Source: Eledone cirrhosa (lineage: Eukaryota). Taken from it: 64,000 nucleotides of DNA. This document shows positions 4,419-64,000 of the stretch, piece after piece. The DNA is taken from assembly GCA_964016885.1 (NCBI GenBank), contig OZ024740.1, positions 128,154,001 through 128,218,000 on the forward strand, read 5' to 3'. A model generated the notes under the pieces. It made no database searches and was not told the DNA's origin. It worked only from the letters and a program-made list of their open reading frames with translations. The position numbers were made by a program, and so were the translations under genes. Position 1 is the stretch's first letter. Each line of letters starts with the position of its first letter.

Positions 4419-4619
4419 GTGAGACATGATATGAAGGTTAAAAATGAAATGGCGCATAATAAAATACATGGAACTCTTTTAACCATCTTTTGATCTCATA
4501 TATTATTTATACTCCAGTCCTACAAACTGTAGAGTGCTACTTATCCGTATCTGCATTGCTTTATTGTACTACAATAAAACTCACCTCCTACATTATATAT
4601 ATATATATATATATGAATG

Positions 4620-5115
4620 TATTTGGCAATATACTGTATGCTTAATTAAAAACATGTTGAAGACCTTGCGCTATTGTTTTAAAGTAGCGACTATGTCACT
4701 TCTTTTTTCAACAAACAAAGCATACAGTATATTGCCAAATATACTATATATATACATTCATGCATACATCGCTATTTCAGAGCACTAATTCTAATTTTGA
4801 ATTTTTGCTGGACCGGCAATCACTGATTATTACTGGAATTCTATAGGAATCACTGATTATTACTGGAATTCTATAAGAATCCAACATTTATAATTTTCAA
4901 TAGACAAAGATGAGTGCTAAGCTCTGATGATTACCAACAGTATGAAACAGAGATATGTCAGCTTATCTCCCTTTGTTTGTTGAAAAAAGAAATAAGTGAC
5001 ATAGTCACTACTTTAAAACAAAAGCGCAAGGTCTTCAAAATGTTTTTAATTTAGCATACAGTATATTGCCAAATATACTATATATACATCGCTATTTCAG
5101 AGCACCAATTCTAAT
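4620..5115 (+). mobile_element. Short non-coding PLE-like (retrozyme-like) element with inverted + direct terminal repeats
   Basis: Inverted arms 4620-4720/4971-5075, direct repeat 4720-4794/5054-5115, internal ~31-bp tandem duplication (4818-4881), HHR at 4918, flanked by (TA)n. Confidence 0.7.
4918..4965 (+). ncRNA. Minimal type I hammerhead ribozyme
   Basis: TAAGCT-CTGATGA-t-TAC caaca GTA-t-GAAA-CA gagata TG-TC-AGCTTA; canonical core, GUC site, 6-bp stem I. Confidence 0.88.
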
Positions 5116-5171
5116 ATATATATATATATATACTCACACACATATATAGATAAAGATATATATATATATAT

Positions 5172-16749: not shown

Positions 16750-16788
<39 letters not shown>

Positions 16789-17057
16789 CAGAATAATCAT
16801 TAAGCAAATAATCGCTGCTTTCACCCTTAACGGGATCTTCTGAAACTAACAAAGTCAATCTATGAACGCAGAAGTGAATATTTCAAAAAACGTTGCTTAA
16901 ACTTTAATCTGTTATTTTAATAAATATTTGTTCTACGGTTCTTATATATTTGATATATATTTATCCTTATCGACTCCTCTTTGGATTTTAGTCTTCAAAT
17001 TTATTATCATTACTATTTGGCTCCCTCGGTTGAGCACTCTATTTACTTATATTCATC

Positions 17058-19141
17058 ATGCAGAAACAACATCTGAATATTTCTACAAAGAACATATCCG
17101 TACCAAGCAGGAAAACATACCTAAAACTCCTGATACAGAAAACAGACGCGTTCATTAAAAGGTTGCTTGGCGTGCCTTTTATTTCGATAATCAGACAACA
17201 AACAGGATAAATTTGGGTTTAAAACCTATAATAACCCTCCGTGTAACCCAGCATTGCTACCCTTCGAAAATGATGTCTTGGAACTCATACGGAGTATCAC
17301 ATTTCGGAATAGGAGCAATTCCTTCCAGTAGGACCTGAAGAATACAATTCGTTCTATTAAGGATTCCAATGCAGTGCACGTCCATTCCGACAAAACTGGC
17401 AACCTATATCAAGTGGAGCGCAGTACTTACCATCAACTACTACATAATGATGTAACTAAGGATTACCGTAAAACTAATCGGTGCGTCATTAATAAAATCA
17501 ACGATGCTGGGTTTAAAATCACCTCTGATCTCAACATCCTGGACCGGACCGAACCTCTGGACCCTATTTCTCCCCATTTTACCTTGAAGGATCACAAATC
17601 CAATTTTCCGAACAGCCCCTCTATTCGGCTTATTAACCCTACGAAGTCCGATTTATGTATACTTAGTAAAACGATTCTTGATAGAATTATACCTGAAATT
17701 GCACTGTGGAACAAGTCTTTCGCGGTGATTGATTGGTTCAACGGCATATGCACAAGGAACATTGCTGTTTTATCCAATTCGACATCAATAATTACCACTC
17801 CTCCATCACTTTACCACTTCTCCTTAGAGCTATCAATTTCGCTAAAACACTCACAGTGGTTAAGGATTTCGAAGTTGATGTCATCCTCAATGCCCGTAAG
17901 TCGGTGATTAATTTCGACGACTCTATTTGGATTAAAAAATCTAATAGTACCCCATTCGCCGTTAGTATGGGCGCCAGCGATTCTGCGGAGGTTACTGATC
18001 TTATCGGCCTTTTCCTTCTTTTCTCTATCAAGGAAGGTTTTTCCCCAACGTGGGCGGTGGTTTGTACCGTGATGATGGTCTTTTGATCATGACTAAGTGC
18101 GGCCCACGTGCTTTCAACAGGTTCAGAAAAGAATTCGCAGCCTTCTTTAAAGGCTTCAACCTCTCTATACAGGTTGAGGCCAAACTCTCGTTCGTTAATT
18201 ACCTCGACGGTACCCTCAATTTAGCGAATGGCTTGTATTACCCGTATAGAGAGTCGAATGATACGCTTAATTACATAAGTAAGCATTCTAACCATCCTGC
18301 CAGCATAACCAAGAACCTGGTAAGAAACGTTTCTTTGAGGCTTTCCCGTCTATCTACTACCGAGCATATTTTCAACGACCATTCCACATATTACAATGAA
18401 GGTCTTTTTCGGAGTGGATTTGTCAATAAGGTAGCATATACAGAGTACCAGAATAGACCTAGAAGAAATAGATCCCGACGCATTATCTGGTATAACCCAC
18501 CATATAATATGGGGGTGGCCACACCATTAGCTAAGATATTTCTATCCCTTATTACGAAGCATTTCCCCCCTTCACATAAATATAGTATACATTTTAATAG
18601 AAATACTATTAAAAATTCTTACTCTACGACTCCTAACATTGCACATAACATGACAGCTTCAAATTTAGCTAAACTACCGATCTGTAGGAACACGTGCAAC
18701 CCTGTAGTTAGTACTAACTGTAATTGTAGGAATCGGGTTGATTGCCCCCTATCCGGGAAATGCCTCTCTAGTAACATTGTCTACAAATGTAAGGTTGAAA
18801 CACCCACGTCCCGTAGGGCCTACATAGGGTTAACCGCCAATAGATTCAAGCAGCGTCTTTACATGCATACCCATTCTTTTCGTTACCCTCTAAGAAGGAA
18901 TATGACGTCACTTTCAGCTTATATCTTGAGTCTAAAAGACAACCACACCCAATATAAGTTACATTGGGATATCCTAGCTTGGGCTAGATCGTATAACGGA
19001 AATAAAAGACCATGTGACATCTGCGCCGCTGAGTCCCTGGAAATACTCTACGCCACTGACCACATCTTAAACAAAAAAATCTTAGGCAATTTTGGCTGTA
19101 AACATAAATTGCACAACATTTTCCTGTATTATATACCCTAA
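17058..19141 (+). pseudogene. PLE RT + GIY-YIG endonuclease ORF with frameshifts and a stop (probably Nematis-like clade)
   Basis: Fragments carry LKDHK.NF, RLINPTKS, GGLYRDDGL, SNHP, WYNPPY, CNCR..CPLSGKCL, VYKC..YIGLT..FKQR; collinear with the 61899 ORF. Clade name is from memory of motifs. Confidence 0.92.
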
Positions 19142-20061
19142 CGGATAGTACGATCTATACGCGGATATTTTACGTCTTGATGTGGTAGCTAAGTATATGT
19201 TATGTGTACTTATTTGCGTAGGTAAGTATATATTACCTGTATGTTTTGTGAAGGTACGTATAATTTCGCGTACTTATATTTGATTGTATATGTTATGGCT
19301 TATTTTTTATATATTCTGGTACATATGCTTTTGGTTATGTGTATAAGAGAGTTTTGCGTATGTGTGAGTATGCGGGTTCGTACGTATGTAGGGTGTGTGT
19401 ATATGTGTACTTCGTGTTTTGGTTGACGTACGTCTCCGAACATATGTGTATTTACATGTAGGTATGTGTGTGCGCTTGTTATATACGTATTTATTTATTT
19501 ATATACGTTTATTTAATATTTTGTATACACGCACACACATATTTATATGTGCGTGTATTTGTATACCTATGGCAAGTGTTTTCGCGTATGCTTGTGTATG
19601 TACGTATATGGATGCGTGTATGTATTTATTTAATTTCAATTACCTCTGTATTTTATTTACTTTATTCTTAACTCTGAAGTGGAGAATCATTCGGTTTCCT
19701 AGTTAGAATTTTAGTCTACCACTTCAGTTATACCATTTACGTGGTTTTGTCTTTGCGTGTAATTGTTCTCCACGCTCCACATATGACGTATTATCTTCGT
19801 TTTTTCTGTTCATTGCCAGAGAACGTCTCGATGAACCACCTAAAAGAATATTAGTCTACGACTTCTTTTATACCATAAACGTGGTTTTGTCTTTGCGTGT
19901 AATTGTTTTTCACCGCTCCAAATAATGACGTATTATATTCCTTTTTTTTCCCGTTCTTTGCCAGGGAACGTTTCCACGAACCAAAGTATCGTCTTCCTGT
20001 CTTCCTCCAGTTGCAACGTTTTTTGAAATATTTACTTCTGCGTTCACAGATTGACTTTGTT

Positions 20062-20112
20062 AGTTTCAGAAGATCCCGTTAAGGGTGAACGCAGCGATTC
20101 TTTGCTTAAACT
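20062..20112 (+). ncRNA. Hammerhead-like fold of PLE family A (variant core CAGAAGA; GAAA is GAAC in this copy)
   Basis: AGTTT-CAGAAGA-t-CCC gttaa GGG-t-GAAC-GCA..TGC-TT-AAACT. Confidence 0.65.
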
Positions 20113-20219
20113 TTAATCTGTTATTTTTATAAATATTTGCTCTACGGTTCTTGTATATTTGATATATATTTATCCTTATCGAGCCCTCTTTGGATTTTAG
20201 TCTTCAAATTTATTATTAT

Positions 20220-20280
<61 letters not shown>

Positions 20281-31867: not shown

Positions 31868-32043
31868 TCATAATTATCATCATTGTTACTGATGATGATA
31901 ATAATATATATATATATATAATATATGTATATATTAGCATAGTACTAACATAGTGAGATTCATAATAGAGTAGTGTATGTAGGCATGTACAATGTGTTTC
32001 TGTATAATAAAAGACGTAAGTCTTGCTGCAAACAGTTTAAGCT

Positions 32044-33700
32044 ATGATCATATCACAAGTATCACAGTATCTACAAGATGAACAGGATCCTGAATTTCAG
32101 GCCTCGAACCTACCCAGAGACAGCTCAAAGTCAGACAAGAAACGAAAAATCCAGCTGGAGCTCCCAAAGAATCCATTTCAAAGTCCAAACATTTCTCTAA
32201 TGGCTGATCGTTTAAACCTGACACTGGGCCGGAGAACAGCATTTATGGCATCGATTATTTCTGAGGGTGGGACTGACATAGACGCCACAACTCTCTCCAA
32301 GAATAGTAGCAGACGTGCAGCTAAGAAGATCAGAACTGTGGGAGCTGAATACATAAAGGAACAATTTGCTGTACCAGACTTTGTTACCTTGCATTGGGAT
32401 GGCAAAATAAATCCTGGTGACCACGAGAGGCTAGGTGTGCTAGTTGCTGGAACTCCGGACTGCAGAGAAGGTAAACTCCTCGGTGTTCCCATAATTCCTG
32501 ATGGCACTGGAATAACCCAAGGTAAAGCATCATTTGATCTTGTTAAAGATTGGAATATTGATGGGTCTGTGGTGGGCTTGGTCTTCGACACAACTGCTTC
32601 GAATTCTGGATGGAAAAATGGTGCCTGCGTGAAACTAGAAGAGATGCTCAACAAAAGTTGTTTGATTTTGCTTGTCGGCACCCTGTCATGGAGCGTATGT
32701 GGCAACAACTATTCGGAGCAATGTCCAGTCCAGACATCCCAGAGTTCAAGGAGTTCAAAAAAGATTGGGTGTCACTCACGGACAAGACCAACTTTAAAAC
32801 ATTGAACATTGTCGTCTGGAGAGTCAAGCGTCTGTGTTCTGAGAACATCAAGTTCCTCCAAGAGTTGCTGACATCCGATGATGGGAAAATGAGTTCTCTT
32901 CTACGGGACGACTACTGAGAATGTGCTGAGTTGATGTTGATCTTGCTTGGTGTCACTCCTCCTCGTGGTATTCATTGGATGTTGCCTGGTGCACATCATA
33001 ACGCTCGGTGGATGTCCACAATCATCTATAGTGCAAAGAGGTATGCATTTGGTGAGCGACTCAATTACGATCAAGCTAAAATGGAAATGTTGCGCCGGAT
33101 CTGTATGTTCAAGGCTCTGTTCTACGTGCGATACTGACTGACAGCAGTCAAGTGTGCTGATGCACCATCCCATGACCTTCAATTCTACGTGGAGTTGACA
33201 CAATACAGTAAGGTTGACAGAGATCTCTCGCAGGTAGCCACTACTGCTCTGAGCAGGCATCTTTGGTACCTGATGGAGGAAGCCATTCCGCTAGCGTTGT
33301 TTTCAAGTCGAGTCCAAGAGTCCGAGAAGAAACAAATAGCTCAACGTCTTGTCAAAACGAAAACGTCTCGACCGTGGTGCTCCAGTATTTCCCGAGTTGC
33401 AGTCGTCCACGAAGCTGCCTCATCTAGTTGGGAAGAAATCATGGCTTCTGTTCGATCTCCTTGGTCTCGACGATACTTGGCTTGAGCTGTCACCTGCAAC
33501 TTTGTCGTCACAAGCATCATATCAAAATGCCTGTGCTGTTGTTCACAATATCAAGGTAGTCAACGATCAGGGCAGTCAAGTTGATAACTGATTTTGTTGC
33601 CATCATCAAGAATGAGGAGAAGCAGTGTGTTCTTCAAGTAGTCGAAGCTCATCGTCGCAAGGGCCCGGATTTCGAAAAAGAAACTCTGAAAAAAATATGA
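32044..33700 (+). pseudogene. DDE transposase relic, hAT-like (probably hATm group), frameshifted
   Basis: LHWDGK, LLGVP, VFDTTASNSG..GAC..LE, ACRH, PGAHHNARWM..IY..K, HLWYL.EE.IPLALF, IKVVND; no TIRs seen. Subgroup assignment is from memory. Confidence 0.8.
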
Positions 33701-41066: not shown

Positions 41067-41124
<58 letters not shown>

Positions 41125-41125
<1 letters not shown>

Positions 41126-43005
41126 GTAATAATAATAAATTTGAAGACTAAAATCCAAAGAGGGCTCGATAAGGATAAATATATATCAAATATATATATA
41201 TGCATATTTATACACACACACACACACACCTATATGTATATATATATATATATCTAACAAAGTCAATCTGTAAACGCAGAACTGGATATTTCAAAAAACG
41301 TTGCAACCGGAGGAAGACAGGAAGACGATACTTTGGTTCGTGGTAACGTTCGCTGGCAAAGAACGGGAAAAAACGAATAATACGTCATTAATAGGAGCGG
41401 TGAAAAACATTACGCGCAAAGACAAAACCACGTTTATGGTATAAAAGAGGTCGTAGACTAATGTTCTCTCAGGTGGTGCATAGAGACGTTCTCTGGCAAT
41501 GAACGAAAAAACGAAGATAATAAGTCATATGTGGAGCGTGGAGAACAATAGCACGCAAAGACAAAACCACGTAAATGGTATAGCAGAAATCGTAGACTAA
41601 AATTCTAACTAGGAGACCAAATGAATCTCCGCTACAGAGTTAAGAACATAGTAAATAAATACAATACAGAAGTAATAGGAACAAATAAATACATACACGC
41701 AAACAGATACGTACATACACAAGCATACGCAAAACCTTACCATGGGTATACAAAACCACGCACATATAAATATGTGTGTGTGTATGCTTGTGTACAAATA
41801 AATAAATAATTATATAAACGTATATAAGTAAATAAATACGTATATAACAAGCGCACACGCATACCTACATATAAATACACGAATGTTCGGAGACGTAAGT
41901 CAACTAAAACAAGAAGTACACATATACACACACCCCCACCATACGTACGAACCTGCACACTCACGCGGACGCAAAACTCCCGTATACACATAGCCAAACC
42001 CTAAATACCAGAATATGTAAAAATTATACGCTATAACAGTCAAATATACGTACGAGAAGGTATGCATACCTTCACAAAACATACGGGTAATATATACTTA
42101 CCTATGCAAATACGTAAAGGAATAAACAAAACATATACTTAGCTCCCACATCAAGACGTAAAATATCCACGTATAGATCGTGCTATCCGTTAGGGTATAA
42201 CGTGGGGCTGTAATACAGGAAAGTTTTGTGCAATTTATGTTTACAAACCGAAATTACCTCAGATTTTTTGTTTAAGATGTGGTCTGTAGCGTAGAGTATT
42301 TCCAGGGCCTCAGCGGCGCAGAGGTCACATGGTCTTTTATTTCAGTTATACGATCTAGCCCTAGCTAGAATCTCCCAGTGTATCTTATATTGGGTGTGGT
42401 TGTCTTTTAGACTCCAGATATAAGCTGAAAGTGACGTCATATTCCTTCTTAGAGGGTAACGAAAAGAATGGGTATGCATGTAAAGACGCTGCTTGAAACT
42501 ATTGGCGGTTAACCCTATGTAGGCCCTACGGGACGTGGGTGTTAAAACCTTACATTTGTAGACAATGTTACGAGAGAGGCATTTCCCGGATAGGGGGCAA
42601 TCAGCCCGATTCCTACAATTACAGTTAGTACTACCTACAGGGTTGCACGTGTTCCTACGGCTAGGTAGTTTAGCTAAATTTGAAGCTGTGATGTTATGTG
42701 CAAGGTTAGGAGTCGTAGAGTAAAAAGTTTTAATAGTATTTCTATTAAAAATTTTACTATATTTATGTGTAGGGGGAAAATGCTTCGTAATAAGGGAAAG
42801 AAAGATCTTAGCTAATGGTGTGGCCACCTCCATATTATATGGTGGGTTAAACCAACAAATGCGACGGGATCTATTTATTCTAGGTCTATTTTCGTACTCT
42901 GTATATGCTGCCTTATCGACAAATCCACTTCGAGCAAGAAGATCCCGTTAAGGGTGAAAGCAGCGATTCTTTGCTTAAACTTTAATCTGTTATTTTAATA
43001 AATAT
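41125..43005 (-). mobile_element. PLE family A rearranged copy: minus terminus 41125-41195, minus body 41254-42937, plus HHR/tail 42935-43005
   Basis: ORF 42342-42833 is the GIY-YIG region, nearly identical to 63379-63865; 3' UTR homologous to 19141-20063. Confidence 0.9.
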
Positions 43006-43026
43006 ATATATAAGTATATATATAAG

Positions 43027-43421
43027 TATAAGTATGTACACGTACATACATATATGTATACCGACGTACAGTAGTATGTATATATATACATACATGCACA
43101 CATATATATGTGCACGTATGGATTCACCGAACATTTATTGTAGTGCTCGGTGTGTTTGTGGACAAACATCCCGTATTAAGCCGTAGTGTCTAGCAACCAC
43201 CGTTGCTCGTTTGTTCAACACTGACAAAGGAACGCTGTACTAGTTTCAAGCTTGTTAGCTAACGGCTTAATACGGGATGTTTGTTTACAAACGCACCGAG
43301 CATTGTAATAAATGTTCGGTGAATCCATACGTGCATATATATATGTGTGCATGTATGTATATATATATACATACTGCTGTATGTCGGTATACATATATGT
43401 ATGTACGTGTACATACTTATA
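43027..43421 (+). repeat. Foldback element: ~158-bp inverted arms (43027-43184, 43262-43421) with a 77-nt spacer
   Basis: Arms paired base by base; 9 mismatches, all G.T on the + strand, plus one TA-unit length difference. Confidence 0.92.
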
Positions 43422-43489
43422 TTTAAGTAACAGCCGTACTAAGAGTGGGAAATGAAATATCGTTTCATTTTTTCCGTTTATATATATAA

Positions 43490-43536
<47 letters not shown>

Positions 43537-43609
43537 TATATATATATATATAAGTATATATATATATATATATATAAGTATATATATATATAAGTATATA
43601 TATATACAA

Positions 43610-43650
<41 letters not shown>

Positions 43651-44729
43651 TATATATATATATATATATATATAAGTATATATATGTATATATATATATA
43701 TATATAAGTATATATAGTAAAACCTACTACAGCCAGTAGGCATCTAACAAAATACCCCCCCCCCGTCCCACAGCCCCCAACCCATCCACGCCACCCCGTT
43801 CTATGTAAAGTTGTGTTGGTGCCACACCATCCAGGCCGAAACAAATGAGATCGTGTAGGTGTCACGACAAAAAAAACACACAGTCCACGCTGTAATGTGC
43901 CCGTGTAGGCAACACGGTAAAAACCTCCCAGACCCACACTGTAAATGTGGTTGGTGTTAGGAAGGGCATCCAACTGTAGAAAACCTGCCAGATAGTCCTA
44001 TGCGAGCAAGACAATCACTCTTGCCTCAAGTGGGACTACCCCCGTCCAAACCCATGCAAGCGTGGAACACGGACGTTAAACGGTGATGATGATGATGATG
44101 ATGATATATATATATATATATGTATATGTATATATATATGTGTGTGTGTGTTTGTGTGTTTGTGTGTGTGTGTCAGTGTATCTATACCTGTATAAGAATA
44201 TGTATAAACGTTTCAGTGGCAATATGTACTGTTGTATAAATATTTAAAATAGATTCATTATTTTGTATGCACTTGTAGTTGAAAAACATAGATAACACCT
44301 ATTTACTACATATTTCTAAATCTAATCAACCAACTCAATTTTCTAAAATCTCAATAAAGGCAATGGATATTTCAGTTTTGAAAATTTTCATTTTCTTTTA
44401 TCACAGAGCATTGCTTATGTTTCAAGCATTGACCTTTAACACTACATATAATCTATATATTGTAGTTATACACAGTTCTGCAGCTGTCTTATTTTAAAGA
44501 AAGGAAACTGAATTGCGACTTGCTCCCAAACCATATTACATACATCCAAAGAAACATATTGATAGATTCTATCACATTCTAGTTCATTTTAATCAATCTT
44601 TGCTATGAATAATGACCTTCGAGAAGTCTGATGGGTCTTTAAGATTATATATGTGCATATACACACCCGTATATATACACACAGACATGTGTATGTATAT
44701 ATAAATACTCATACATATATATACACACA

Positions 44730-46345: not shown

Positions 46346-46351
46346 AGAAGA

Positions 46352-49300
46352 TTAACTAAATTAAGGATAGTTAATATATTGATTTCTAAGGTGTATACTA
46401 CTTAGGTTTATAATATTTGAAGCGGAATTTTGAAGTTAAATAGTAGTAGAGTATTAATAATAGTATAACTAAATTAAAATTATTAACGTTATGGTATCAA
46501 TATTAGGAAATGAATTTAGTAATAGGGAAAAAACAAATAAAGTATTACATCGGTAGTAGAATATAAATTATAGGTTAACTAAATTAAAAATTATATATTA
46601 ATTTCTATAGTATATGTTAATTAGGTTTATAATAATTAAAACAGATATTGTATTTTATCTATAGTAGAATATAATTATAGGTAAACAGAAAATTAAAATT
46701 AATACATACACTTATACATATACATATATATATATATACACATATATATATATATACATATACATATATATACATACATATACATATTTTTTCAAAAATT
46801 GCAAAGAATATATTAACTAGGTATAGATCCAAAACCTATCTCAGTCTATGATTACATGACACTCTGCAATCCATCTGTATTAGGATATTAATTTTAAGCC
46901 AATTAAATTAAATTATAAATATATTTCTTTAAAGAGGTTCCCAAATATTGTTTTTCCATTGTGATATGGATGATGGACAATTGAAAGAGCTCAACTAAAT
47001 GTATATGGGTTTACAAAATCATACATATATATGTATATACATAAATATAAAATTAACACACACATACAGTACAAAAATACGAATATTTCCGTGAAAATAG
47101 GAGCAAAATTATGTAGATAAATCTACCAAGAGTTTACGGTAGTGTCCAATCCGTATGAAGAACTCAATGTAACCATATCACAATGGAAAAACAATATTTG
47201 GGAACCTCTTTAAAGAACATACCAATACCTTCTAAGGATGATTTCTTACTCCTTATGATTCAAAGAACTAACCAATTTATCAGAAGAGTTAGATGGAGGG
47301 CCTACCACTTCGATAAAAAATCTAAATATGCAGATAGGAAATATATGTATGATTTCAATACTTACAAAAATCCACCACACAACTCTTTGCTTGAAGACTT
47401 TGAGAAAGACCTTTTTAATTTAATTAAACACCTCAAATTTAAAAAGTATAAATCTGTCTTTCAAAATGACCTTGATTCTACCCTATTGGACCTAAAAAAG
47501 TCTAAAAAAATCCATGTCCACTCGACAAAACTGGTAACTTGTATCACATGGATATTGAAGATTATAATGAGTTCATATATAAAGAACTCAGGAAAAATTA
47601 TAAAAAATCTAATAATGCATCACTCACCAACATCAACAACAAAACACACAACATAGTAAAAAATCTAAACATTGAAGATAGAACTGAACCTTTGGCATTG
47701 AAAAGACCACACTTCAACCTGAAGGATCATAAATCAAACTTTAACTCAAATCCTTCTATAAGACTTATATGTCCCTCCAAATCTGATATTGGAATAATTA
47801 GCAAAAAAATGTTGGATAGAGTCATCCCACAAATAAGAAAACACGTTATTTTACCACTCTGGGAAAACACTTCCCAGGTAATTAACTGGTTTAAAATATT
47901 AGATGTAAATCTTCTGCTTCATTTCTACAATTTGATATAGATAATTACTATTCTTCTATATCACCTATACTCCTGAACAAAGCATTGATATTTGCTAAAA
48001 ATAGATCTAACTTAACTTTGGATGACATTAATATTATTACACATGCTAGACTAACACTTATTGAATTTCAGAATGAATACTGGACCAGAAACACATATAG
48101 TAATCTATTTGATATTACTATGGGTTCAAGCGATTCCGCCCAAATTACTGATCTTGTGGGCCTCTTTCTCCTTTTCAACATAAATGCCTCCTTTCCCCAC
48201 CTTAAAGGTGGTTTATATCGTGATGACTGTCTTCTTCTTTCCAACAACCTTAGCCTTTCAGAAATAGAAAAAAACAAAAAGCATATTAGAACTTTCCTTA
48301 AAGACTATTATAGTCTTCATATTACTTTTGAAAAAACAAGTAAAGTAGTAAATTTCCTAGATATAACTTTAGACTTAGCTACGGGTATCTACCAACCTTA
48401 CCATAAACCCAACCAAAACTTACACTACATACACTCACAATCTAATCAACCTAAATCTATCCTTAAAAACCTTGCATATAATATATCACTTAGAATTTCT
48501 AACCTTTCTTCTAACCAAGATGTATTTGATAAAAATGCGACCTTCTATAACGAAGCTCTAGATAGAAGTGGCCACAAAAATAGATTAGAATATATACCTT
48601 CTACTAAAAATACTATAAACATACAATCTAATATTACCAACAAACACCAAATGAAAAGTACACACCTAAATGCCACCCACACTATACCCCAAAATACCAA
48701 CTCTTCTAATATAAAGTATAGTAACTCTCAAAAAACTACTCATCATACAACTCTAATAAATGTTAATAATAAAACTCCTAATAAACAAGATAAAACACCT
48801 AAATCTACAAATCTAACTAAAAATGTGCGTGGTGAGATCATTAACATTAATCCTCCTAGTAAACATCACGATACAACCTATAAAAATAATAAACAACATA
48901 GAAACCGTAATAGACGGGTTACTTGGTATAATGCTCCATTTAATTTACAAATTAAGGATAATATTGCTAAAAAAATTTTTTATATCCTAGAGAAAAACTT
49001 CCCGCCAAACCACAAATACCATCAAATCTTAAATAGGTCTACAGTTAAATTCTCATACTCAATAACAAATAACATAAAACAAAATATAAGTGCCTATAAT
49101 GCATATAAATGTAAGAATACCATAAGTATACCACCAATACATCAAACTAACCATAATATCTCTTCAAATACAGAATTAACGAAAGGTTGTAACTGTAGAA
49201 ACAAGGCAAACTGCCCATTAAAAGGAAATTGTCTTGTTAACAACATAGTTTATAAATGTAATGTTAAAACTAAAGATTCTATTTGCTCATATATAGGAGC

Positions 49301-50507
49301 TACTTCTAACAATTTTAAGGCAAGGTTTAATACCCACAAACATAGTTTTAAAAATGCCGCACTGGCTAATACAACATCTCTAGCAGAAGAAATCAATAGT
49401 TATAAAAATAAGAATATAGAATATGATTTGACCTGGAGTGTGCTCAAAAGAGCCACCCCTTATCAAAATAATAGAAATGAATGTAGATTATGTTCCCAAG
49501 AACTATTTGAAATAATGAAATCTAAGGATATCCTATTAAATAAACGACAGGAATTAATTATATCGTGTAATCATAAACTAAGAAAAACATTTAAATATTA
49601 TAAACCTAATTAATAACATTATTTTAGAATTTAATATATAATTTAATTTAAATGTTAGTTAACCTATAAATTTAATTTAATTAAAATTTTACTACAGATG
49701 AGATTATAAAATATTGTGTAATCATAAATTGTGAAAAACTTTTAAATATCACTAATATATACTTCGTAAATTAATTTATAGATTAATTTTAATTTATTTA
49801 ACTTTTTATTAAAATTCCTTTACAGATAAAATATAACAATATATCGTGTATTCAATGACAGAGAAATAATTTTTAGTATTATAGACCTAATTAATGTACA
49901 TTTTAGAAATATATTTATAATTTGGTTTTAAATTTGGTCAACCTAAAAATTTAATTTAATTGGCTTAAAATTAATATCCTAATACAGATGGATTGCAGAG
50001 TGTCATGTAATCATAGACTGAGATAGGTTTGGGATCTATACCTAGTTAATATATTCTTTGCAATTTTTGAAAAAATATGTATATGTATGTATATATATGT
50101 ATATGTATATATATATATGTGTATATATATATATGTATATGTATATGTGTATGTATTAATTTTAATTTTCTGTTTACCTATAATTATATTCTACTATAGA
50201 TAAAATACAATATCTGTTTTAATTATTATAAACCTAATTAACATATACTATAGAAATTAATATATAATTTTTAATTTAGTTAACCTATAATTTATATTCT
50301 ACTACCGATGTAATACTTTATTTGTTTTTTCCCTATTACTAAATTCATTTCCTAATATTGATACCATAACGTTAATAATTTTAATTTAGTTATACTACTA
50401 TTAATACTCTACTACTATTTAACTTCAAAATTCCGCTTCAAATATTATAAACCTAAGTAGTATACACCTTAGAAATCAATATATTAACTATCCTTAATTT
50501 AGTTAAC
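46352..50507. repeat. ~560-bp near-perfect inverted repeat (46352-46915 / 49949-50507) bracketing the PLE family B ORF
   Basis: Arms are reverse complements with very few differences; typical Penelope inverted 5' segment. Confidence 0.9.
47183..49613 (+). pseudogene. PLE family B RT + GIY-YIG ORF, two frameshifts (~47520, ~47930)
   Basis: SLKNIPIP, RRVRWRAYHF, LKDHKSNF, MGSSDSAQITDLVG, GGLYRDDCL, WYNAPF, CNCR..CPLKGNCL, VYKC..YIGAT..FKARF; paralogous to family A with an N/T/K-rich insert. Confidence 0.92.
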
Positions 50508-50795
50508 CTATGGTTAATGGTATAATTATATTGAAATGCATAATTTTGCCTTCTTTCTTACATTTCCTAATACTGAAACTATGTAAACACATATTATGAT
50601 CTAAATGCAGATTAATATTCTATGTTTCTTGAAACCTATATTTACTATAATCCCCCCCCCCCTTCCCCCCTACTATTATTATTTGTATTTGTAAGCGTTG
50701 ATGTATGTATGTATATGTAGGTAGGTATGTATGTTTGGGTGTTTGTATGTGAGTATAAAAATACATATGTGCGCATGTAAATAATAGTGTATGAT

Positions 50796-61740: not shown

Positions 61741-61898
61741 GGAATTTCATCTGTTGAGACCCTAAGCTATGTGAAATGTGTGGGCTTTCCATAAAAACAT
61801 TTAGGTAAAAAAATGATATAATAATTCTTATATTAAAGTTTTTATTATTATTACTATTTGGCTCCTTCGGTTGAGCACTCTACTGACTTATATTCATC

Positions 61899-64000
61899 AT
61901 GCAGAAACAACATCTGAATATTTCTACAAAGAACATACTCGTACCAAGCAGGAAAACATATCTAAAACTCCTGATACAGAAAACAGACGCGTTCATTAAA
62001 AGGTTGCGTTGGCGTGCCTTTTATTTCGATAATCCGCGAAAAGCAGACAACAAACAGGATAAATTTGGATTTAAAACCTATAATAACCCTCCGTGGAACC
62101 CAGCATTGCTACCCTTCGAATATGATGTCTTGGAACTCATTCGGAATATCAAATTTCGGAATAGGAGCAATTCCTTCCAGCAAGACCTGAAGAATAGAAT
62201 TCGTTCTATTAAGGATTCTAACGCCGTGCACCTCCATTCCGACAAAACTGGCAACCTATATCAGGTGGAGCGCAGTACTTACCATCAACTACTACATAAT
62301 GCTGTAACTAAGGATTACCGTAAAACTAATCGGTGCGTCATCAATGAAATCAGCGATGCTGGGTTTAAAATCACATCTGATCTCAACATCCTGGACCGGA
62401 TCGAACCTCTGAACCCTATCTCTCCCCACTTTACTCTGAAGGATCACAAATCCAATTTTCCGAACAACCCCTCTATTCGGCTTATTAACCCTACGAAGTC
62501 CGATTTAGGTAGACTTAGTAAAACGATTCTTGATAGGATTATACCTGAAATTAGAAGTTTGGCCCCTCTCGCTCTGTGGAACAATTCTTTCGCGGTGATT
62601 GATTGGTTCAACGGCATATGTAACAAGGATCATTGCCGTTTTATCCAATTCGACATCAACAATTACTACTCCTCCATCACTTTACCACTTCTCCTTAGAG
62701 CTATCAATTTCGCTAAAACACTCACAGTGGTTAAGGATTTTGAAGTTGATGTCATCCTTAATGCCCGAAAGTCGGTGATTAATTTCGACGACTCTATTTG
62801 GATTAAAAAATCCAATAATACCCCATTCGACGTGAGTATGGGCGCCAGTCACTCTGCGGAGGTTACTGATCTTATTGGCCTTTTCCTTCTTTTCTCTATC
62901 AAGGACGAATTCCCCAACGCGGGCGGTGGTTTGTACCGTGACGATCGTCTTTTGACCATGACTAAGTGCGGACCTCGTGCTTGCGACAGGTTCAGAAAAG
63001 AACTCACAGCCTTCTTTAAAGGCTTCAACCTCTCTATACGGGTTGAGGCCAATCTCTCGGTCGTTAATTACCTCGACGTTACCCTCAATTTATTGAATGG
63101 GTTGTATTACCCGTATAGAAAGCCGAATGATACGCTTAATTACATAAGTAAGCATTCCAACCATCCTGCCAGCATAACCATGAACCTGGTAAGAAACGTT
63201 TCGTTGAGGCTTTCCCGTCTTTCCACCAACGAGCGCATTTTCAACGACCATTCCACTTATTACAATGAAGCTCTTGCTCGAAGTGGATTTGTCGATAAGG
63301 TAGCATATACTGAGTACGAAAATAGACCTAGAAGAAATAGATCCCGTCGCATTTGTTGGTTTAACCCACCATATAATATGGAGGTAGCCGCACCATTAGC
63401 TAAGATCTTTCTTTCCCTTATTACGAAGCATTTTCCCCCTACACATAAATATAGTAAAATTTTTAAAAGAAATACTATTAAAATTTCTTACTCTACGACT
63501 CCTAACCTTGCACATAACATCACAGCTTCAAATTTAGCTAAACTACCTAGCCGTAGGAACACGTGCAACCCGGTAGTTAGTACTAACTGTAATTGTAGGA
63601 ATCGGGCTGATTGCCCCCTATCCGGGAAATGCCTCTCTAGTAACATTGTCTACAAATGTAAGGTTGTAACACCCACGTCCCGTAGGGCCTACATAGGGTT
63701 AACCGCCAATAGTTTCAAGCAGCGTCTTTACATGCATACCCATTCTTTTCGTTACCCTCTAAGAAGGAATATGACGTCACTTTCAGCTTATATCTGGAGT
63801 CTAAAAGACAACCACACCCAATAGAAGTTACACTGGGAGATCCTAGCTAGGGCTAGATCGTATAACGGAAATACAAGACCATGTGACCTCTGCGCCGCTG
63901 AGGCCCTGGAAATACTCTACGCCACAGACCACATCTTAAACAAAAAATCTGAGGCAATTTCGGCTTGTAAACATAAATTGCACAAAACTTTCCTGTATTA
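61899..64000 (+). CDS. PLE family A RT + GIY-YIG ORF, nearly intact (641 aa open, then one premature TAG at 63822-63824; runs off window)
   Basis: Continuous ORF with all PLE motifs; sister copies have TAT at this codon and the frame continues (KLHWEILARARSYNGN..CDLC). Confidence 0.92.

Follow-up and report, generated by a model that had tools for sequence, protein, structure and literature searches.

The window analysed here is the whole stretch of 64,000 nucleotides of Eledone cirrhosa DNA. Its central feature is a long foldback which, according to the arm alignment, consists of a left arm (43027-43184, 158 nt), a loop (43185-43261, 77 nt), and a right arm (43262-43421, 160 nt). The left arm and the loop carry the element sense on the - strand, and the right arm carries it on the + strand. 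A tail of about 55-58 nt, placed by read depth and belonging to the repeat family described below, follows on the + strand (43422-43480); it is present on the right side only. The insertion is embedded in a (TA)n target array. The left part of this array, with AAG interruptions, lies at 43006-43026 and was found by a search for the interrupted unit. Its right part, found by sequence and by the same search, lies at 43481-43716. Ten of the 11 hits of the interrupted TA unit in the window flank the foldback, all in one orientation.

When the arms are aligned, they differ by nine substitutions, all of them G.T on the + strand. Given as left/right arm positions, the pairs are 43066/43382, 43072/43376, 43110/43336, 43140/43306, 43141/43305, 43143/43303, 43153/43293, 43160/43286, and 43161/43285. 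The alignment also contains a single indel, of 2 nt, within a run of TA (43368-69), and a tenth G.T pair (43026/43422) appears if it is extended into the microsatellite. An earlier, sequence-only reading of this DNA had placed the foldback and the left-arm mismatch positions correctly. Its statement that A.C pairs and transversions are absent holds for the substitutions, but it had left the indel unmentioned. Folded as RNA, the + strand reaches -282.3 kcal/mol (z -32) and the - strand -252.9 kcal/mol; all nine mismatches keep pairing in the + strand RNA.

Inverted repeats elsewhere in the window have mixed mismatch types, as had been reported before. Three short-range controls hold 9 G.T, 11 A.C, and 18 transversions among 38 mismatches, and the foldback differs from them with a Fisher P of 3.6e-5, for a locus that a very large scan had singled out as odd. 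A wider background was formed by seven hand-picked, near-identical, non-redundant pairs out of the 30 inverted pairs listed in the window. This background is transversion-rich (58 G.T, 47 A.C, and 125 transversions in 230 mismatches). Against it, the chance that all nine mismatches fall in a single wobble class is P=3.4e-6, with the same caution about how the locus was chosen. The one-way bias, formerly put at a P of 0.002, is thus upheld and stronger.

Directly to the left lies a PLE of another family, separate from the foldback and delimited by repeat comparison (41068-43005, - strand). It consists of a 5'-truncated body (41068-42939, - strand) and an inverted tail piece (42937-43005, + strand), and so has the same head-to-head design. 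A sister ORF of this neighbour, at 61887-63821, was matched by Atlas features to RT/GIY-YIG clusters (0.95-0.96). Only these features named the neighbouring PLE ORFs, which Pfam (1e-3) and PDB sequence searches left unnamed. Compared with its sister copies on the + strand, the neighbour shows 19 A>G, 17 G>A, 4 T>C, and 6 C>T differences dispersed over 41100-42299, where there is no hairpin. The skew is probably subfamily divergence with a strand-skewed spectrum, and it calls for caution, since spectra may be skewed locally.

The design of the foldback recurs in four other head-to-head units of the window. Several further elements can be described. A retrozyme-like unit at 4605-5110 has a complete hammerhead core at about 4924-4960 (+ strand), in the spacer of the inverted repeat 4605-4720/4971-5089. 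It is nested in a larger inverted pair (3030-3857/5219-6016), and the mismatches are mixed. An Rfam search at E<=10 over 4550-5150 gave 20 sub-threshold hits, no hammerhead family among them. At 16754-17016, directly upstream of a PLE copy (17000-20270), stands a small head-to-head pair of 3' ends of the neighbour family. A second PLE family occupies 46349-50509, with + strand ORFs at 47159-47656 and 47895-49613; the inverted repeats that flank it (46349-46914/49948-50509) are 98.4% identical. Finally, broken ORFs at 32041-33485 presumably resemble a DNA transposase, an impression taken from their translation.

The repeat family and its hammerhead

Information on the family of the foldback was obtained from public sequencing runs. 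Four of the 23 runs listed were used, namely X1, X6, and X21 from organism A and X4 from organism B, and their sequences were matched to 43170-43500 at 80% likeness. None of the listed runs is recorded as RNA, which carries no weight either way. The small-share runs X5 and X7-X20 were left out of the family comparison. One high-copy family covers the loop, the arm, and 43422-43480, with 7,384 matched X1 contigs and 68,325 matched X21 reads. Within the 64,000-nt window, no second copy of the arm core, loop, or tail was found, and an exact 20-mer scan of metagenome contigs gave 0 matches.

Ordinary copies of the family pass from the loop directly into the arm. This is seen as a joint between 43185 and 43262 on opposite strands, which is present in 4,792 X21 reads and is the commonest of the joints listed. 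The exact junction of the foldback is rare, with a total X1 depth of about 6.6 (letters other than T at 43262) against about 1e6. Other family joints break at other places. Some connect 43252-43261 to 43425-43435, and thus represent copies in which a piece from the hammerhead side sits directly on the tail, as in shorter foldback-type insertions with different breakpoints. A MITE or foldback DNA transposon was considered and rejected, as the fixed terminal inverted repeats of such an element are not seen: ordinary copies are one-directional, the exact junction is rare, and breakpoints vary.

Family depth carries on through 43422-43481 and falls thereafter. The family has two classes of 3' end, one at about 43422-43425, where loose ends run into TA repeats, and one at about 43480, indicated by both depth and loose ends. 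The left arm corresponds to the 3' end of the family terminal repeat without the tail, running into the TA array, and the right arm to a 5'-truncated, tailed copy of the same 3' end.

A presumed half hammerhead was recognised by its core motif on the - strand of the loop. It lies at about 43231-43261 and is the 3' half of a type I hammerhead, with stem II, the GAAA box, a palindromic stem III, and the cleavage triplet. The stem II hairpin folds, and the CUGAUGA half has been removed by the junction at 43261. Since the loose ends behind 43261 (15,868 X21 reads and 43 X1 contigs) supply the complement of the missing core box and the stem I strand, the family is predicted by motif to have a complete type I hammerhead with a short palindromic stem III. 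Metazoan type I hammerheads of this kind have been described (PMC4209133). At the gathering score, Rfam gave 0 hits in the whole window; at E<=10 it gave 61 sub-threshold hits at the foldback, led by TA-rich miRNA models and with no hammerhead family.

Judged from these comparisons of sequence, the locus is a tail-less 3' end that points left and is cut in the hammerhead, joined head-to-head to a tailed, 5'-truncated 3' end that points right. PLE insertions with an inverted copy, a one-sided tail, and a (TA)n target have been reported (PMC8557442). The foldback is very probably a hammerhead-bearing PLE terminal repeat that was inserted into a (TA)n array in a short head-to-head form, with its tail on one side. 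There is equally high confidence that the structure itself is of a known kind, the inverted-pLTR layout of PLEs. The sequence-only reading had proposed an insertion next to a PLE tail and had missed that the foldback is itself a PLE-type insertion of inverted terminal repeats.

Two identities are possible for the family, an autonomous PLE and a retrozyme-like derivative. Both fit because no ORF of the family was found: a search for its RT ORF in the window was negative, and no link to an RT + GIY-YIG ORF emerged, the loop and arm core having no match to the PLE ORF families present in the window. The inversion junctions at 42937 and 43261 belong to two different families, and each is located within the hammerhead core box or just behind it. 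This hints at a preferred point for RT to stop or switch.

Polarity of the mismatches

The direction of each change was assigned by comparison with the family majority in X1, X21, X6, and X4. The comparison lists 40 difference rows, with 32 more outside the list, and per-run tallies were used for accounting.

Two sites in the right arm can be polarised directly. At 43293 the family has A in 99.8% of X1, 96.7% of X21, 99.4% of X6, and 100% of X4, and at 43305 in 99.6%, 97.3%, 99.7%, and 100%, respectively; the G of the window is private at both. The left arm was judged by its partners. All T>C places of three runs are listed (5/5 in X1, 11/11 in X21, and 5/5 in X6), and none is at 43285, 43286, 43303, 43306, or 43336; one X4 place falls outside the listing. 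In X1 and X21, the positions that pair with the left arm lack any T>C place that reaches 3%. Because the right-arm partners show no T>C place in X1, X21, and X6, the left-arm Gs at 43161, 43160, 43143, 43140, and 43110 are, by comparison with the family, derived. For 43110, which sits in a TA run, the polarity comes from only about 690 X21 reads.

The other two pairs behave differently. At 43382 the family has C in 89% of X1, 98% of X21, 100% of X6, and 36% of X4. The family majority thus keeps a G-C pair, and 43066/43382 reads as a C>T change at a CpG in the right arm. The T could have come from the source subfamily, because it is a recurrent variant of the family. Position 43376 is uncovered in X1, and 4 X21 G>A places lie outside the listing; 43072/43376 is probably a C>T change at 43072.

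In total, seven of the nine sites are A>G on the + strand, five in the left arm (43110, 43140, 43143, 43160, and 43161) and two in the right (43293 and 43305). One is C>T, and one is counted in neither class. An ADAR origin had been said to fall if the family showed G-C pairs at these sites. Seven sites pass this test, and 43066/43382 does not.

Several further sites are polymorphic in the family (43333, 43409, 43254, and 43448), the window having G where many copies have A. At 43333 and 43409 the G is common to both arms and therefore predates the foldback. The commonest class of difference from the family is G>A, with 10 of 33 places in X1.

As a measure of strength, four window copies of another PLE contain 196 private substitutions (A>G 29, T>C 15). 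Relative to these, at least seven of nine A>G changes on one strand have P=1.3e-5, for a locus picked for its oddity. Six of the seven sites fall in one 22-bp stretch of duplex, at a distance of 23-44 bp from the loop. With the same caution about the choice of locus, this clustering has P=0.0008 over the 106 adenosines of the arms and P=0.009 over the 44 that are outside the microsatellite. In the patch, 6 of 14 adenosines are changed, and in the arms overall 7 of 106.

These numbers can be set against the simplest account, an ordinary inverted PLE insertion that gathered normal or locally clustered DNA mutations and was picked up as a chance extreme of a large scan. Such an account is rather unlikely. 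It would require a coincidence of type and strand with the P of 1.3e-5 just given for a locus picked for oddity, a clustering of about 0.001-0.01, and zero transversions where the background has 125 in 230 mismatches, and the three control inverted repeats are of mixed type. It draws some strength from the very high copy number of the family and the four other head-to-head units, from at least one site that is plain CpG decay, and from the 3' region of the neighbour PLE, which has strand-skewed transitions at 41100-42299 (19 A>G against 4 T>C) in the absence of a hairpin.

The loop (77 nt) and 54 nt of the tail have zero private changes among the differences listed, for which P is 0.045 with nine sites and 0.13 with seven. 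The differences that are listed there are family polymorphisms, in which the window allele makes up at least 14% of X1 depth or is the rest after the listed letter. The footprint is thus confined to the duplex and affects both arms of one strand, five sites on the left and two on the right, a pattern that is weak by itself (P=0.045-0.13).

Selection for an RNA duplex, such as an hpRNA or endo-siRNA precursor in which only G.U is tolerated, would also leave nine mismatches that all keep pairing in the + strand RNA. Nine G.U pairs would have to be what filtering left of about four times as many mutations, which calls for an old copy, but the loop and tail have no private change among the differences listed. 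The alleles are clustered, and their being private speaks against conservation; nor is there an Rfam match at the gathering score. This option of the sequence-only reading finds no support, and selection is a highly improbable cause.

The same reading had argued from sequence context that none of the changed adenosines has a 5' G. This is true, and 5' G depletion is a real preference of ADAR (PMC5625713). The argument carries no weight here, because a 5' G precedes only 6 of the 106 arm adenosines, so that 0 of 7 at the changed sites has P=0.67.

A single-stranded intermediate deaminated entirely by strand-specific C>T changes had been offered as a third option. It is rejected, since the family has an A-T pair at seven of the nine sites.

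Possible origin of the changes

The best reading of the mismatches, favoured by a modest balance of probability, is that a transcript of a foldback was edited by ADAR and reverse-transcribed into the germline. Much of the original proposal of an edited-hairpin fossil survives, with seven of nine sites A>G, clustered, and confined to the duplex. The C>T change at a CpG and the empty neighbour argument have to be subtracted from it.

The process could have begun with a read-through transcript of the + strand of a pre-existing foldback, which would form a 158-bp duplex. ADAR would then deaminate a patch of adenosines on both arms of the hairpin RNA. The edited RNA would end in the sense 3' tail, and because this is where the reverse transcriptase of PLEs starts, a foldback transcript would be a natural substrate for re-insertion. 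In vitro, a PLE reverse transcriptase starts at both ends of the tail (PMC11167929). The edited RNA may have been copied to DNA, and the copy fixed, by one of two routes: as a new insertion derived from an unedited parent foldback, with its 5' end joined via TA homology, or by rewriting its own locus. Ordinary C>T changes, one or two in number, would have arisen separately.

Relative to the element, the A>G changes of the left arm are antisense, and those of the right arm are sense. Because they fall on one strand in both arms, ADAR would have acted on the hairpin RNA as a whole and not on sense templates. One molecule with both arms on the + strand is needed, because separate sense templates or symmetric RT error would give mixed G.T and A.C pairs. 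A two-ended insertion from edited sense RNAs is rejected on the same ground, as only G.T is seen.

Deamination of the + strand could instead have taken place on DNA, either by ADAR editing an R-loop or RT hybrid on its DNA strand, or by a deaminase that acts on A and C in a single-stranded intermediate. All nine G.T pairs would be covered, as A>G and C>T on one strand. In vitro, ADARs are able to edit hybrids on their DNA strand (reviewed in PMC12925331), and an ADAT of amphioxus is reported to deaminate DNA (PMC10354150). A single-strand deaminase should strike the loop and spare the paired arms, and the opposite is seen. In a two-ended insertion, furthermore, one arm has cDNA as its + strand and the other has the RNA-sense strand, so that editing of a hybrid would give mixed mismatches. 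Deamination of DNA is quite improbable as the source of the changes.

Editing of other retroelements gives supporting context. In a lizard, Penelope RNA is heavily hyper-edited, and it is the only LINE-class repeat besides CR1 named as massively hyper-edited in the available text of PMC5625713. In avian retroviruses, A>G clusters have been found in an inverted repeat (reviewed in PMC12925331).

In X1, X6, X21, and X4, none of the reads or contigs is shown with the seven G alleles, and no piece spans the locus. No unedited parent foldback was identified in these data, and with an X1 depth of about 6.6 at the exact junction, no family of identical foldbacks was seen. Runs X1-X3 hold a share of 0.56-0.59 of 54 sampled words, in line with the 0.60 to be expected were the nine sites and the junction absent; a loss of low-complexity words might produce the same value. 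The low share points to an artefact if X1-X3 come from the assembly's own sample, and to a polymorphic insertion if they come from another individual.

An error of assembly or polishing, in which the G alleles are absent from the animal's DNA and come from edited RNA reads used in polishing or from a consensus error at a palindrome, is accordingly considered, and is unlikely. The word share fits the absence of the private alleles, no read or contig piece spans the locus in the four runs, and inverted PLE structures are known trouble spots of assembly (PMC8557442). Other inverted repeats of the window have no such bias, and errors of double-stranded sequencing should be strand-symmetric. X1-X3 may also be another individual, the insertion looking young enough to be polymorphic.

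If the edited-transcript reading of this locus is extended, PLE foldbacks would be re-mobilised as hairpin RNAs via their own 3' tail, and germline ADAR edits would become heritable DNA mutations. This wider claim is tentative, with doubt slightly ahead of belief. Whether, retroviruses apart, A-to-I editing leads to heritable change of DNA is an open question and a contested one, and the origin of inverted PLE structures is described as undefined in PMC8557442. If the claim is true, inverted PLE structures can be copied as units, PLE foldbacks form a genomic fossil record of A-to-I editing, and RNA editing has a route to write into an animal genome. If the alleles are an artefact or due to chance, the locus is an ordinary PLE insertion. 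With a high-copy family, many foldbacks, and a clean majority sequence, both PLE inversion and heritable editing can be tested genome-wide.

Comparison with known systems

In the literature searched, outside which most subscription papers lie, no report was found of ADAR-edited PLE copies fixed in a genome. A term search of the available text of PMC3197674 found nothing relevant.

The closest match in structure is the inverted-pLTR form of PLEs, in which an inverted, 5'-truncated copy stands beside the main copy, with a tail at one end and a (TA)n target (PMC8557442; PMC11167929). The type I hammerhead with a short palindromic stem III in the terminal repeat (PMC4209133) is a further likeness, here by motif. 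There are three differences. The tail is about 55-58 nt here and 30-40 in published elements, the foldback family has no linked ORF within the window, and the arms carry a patch of same-strand A>G changes that is undescribed in the available portions of PMC8557442, PMC11167929, and PMC4209133.

Non-LTR retrozymes, in the part of their description at hand (bioRxiv 10.64898/2026.07.22.740005), are likewise short, high-copy, hammerhead-bearing, and derived from PLE terminal repeats. The foldback is arranged head-to-head and not as a tandem array.

ADAR-hypermutated avian retroviruses (Hajjar and Linial 1995; Felder 1994; both as cited in the review PMC12925331) share an A>G cluster in the inverted repeat or LTR of a reverse-transcribing element. 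According to the review, nearly 50% of adenosines are changed there, compared with 7 of 106 here, or 6 of 14 in the patch. The present case also concerns a non-viral retroelement in an assembled animal genome.

As far as the available text of PMC2873906 goes, the nearest genomic analogue is the 'DNA editing' of retroelements by APOBEC. There too, a cluster in which the mismatches share one type has been fixed in a genomic copy of a retroelement. In that system the changes are G>A and result from cytidine deamination of cDNA, whereas here they are A>G and lie on both arms of a hairpin.
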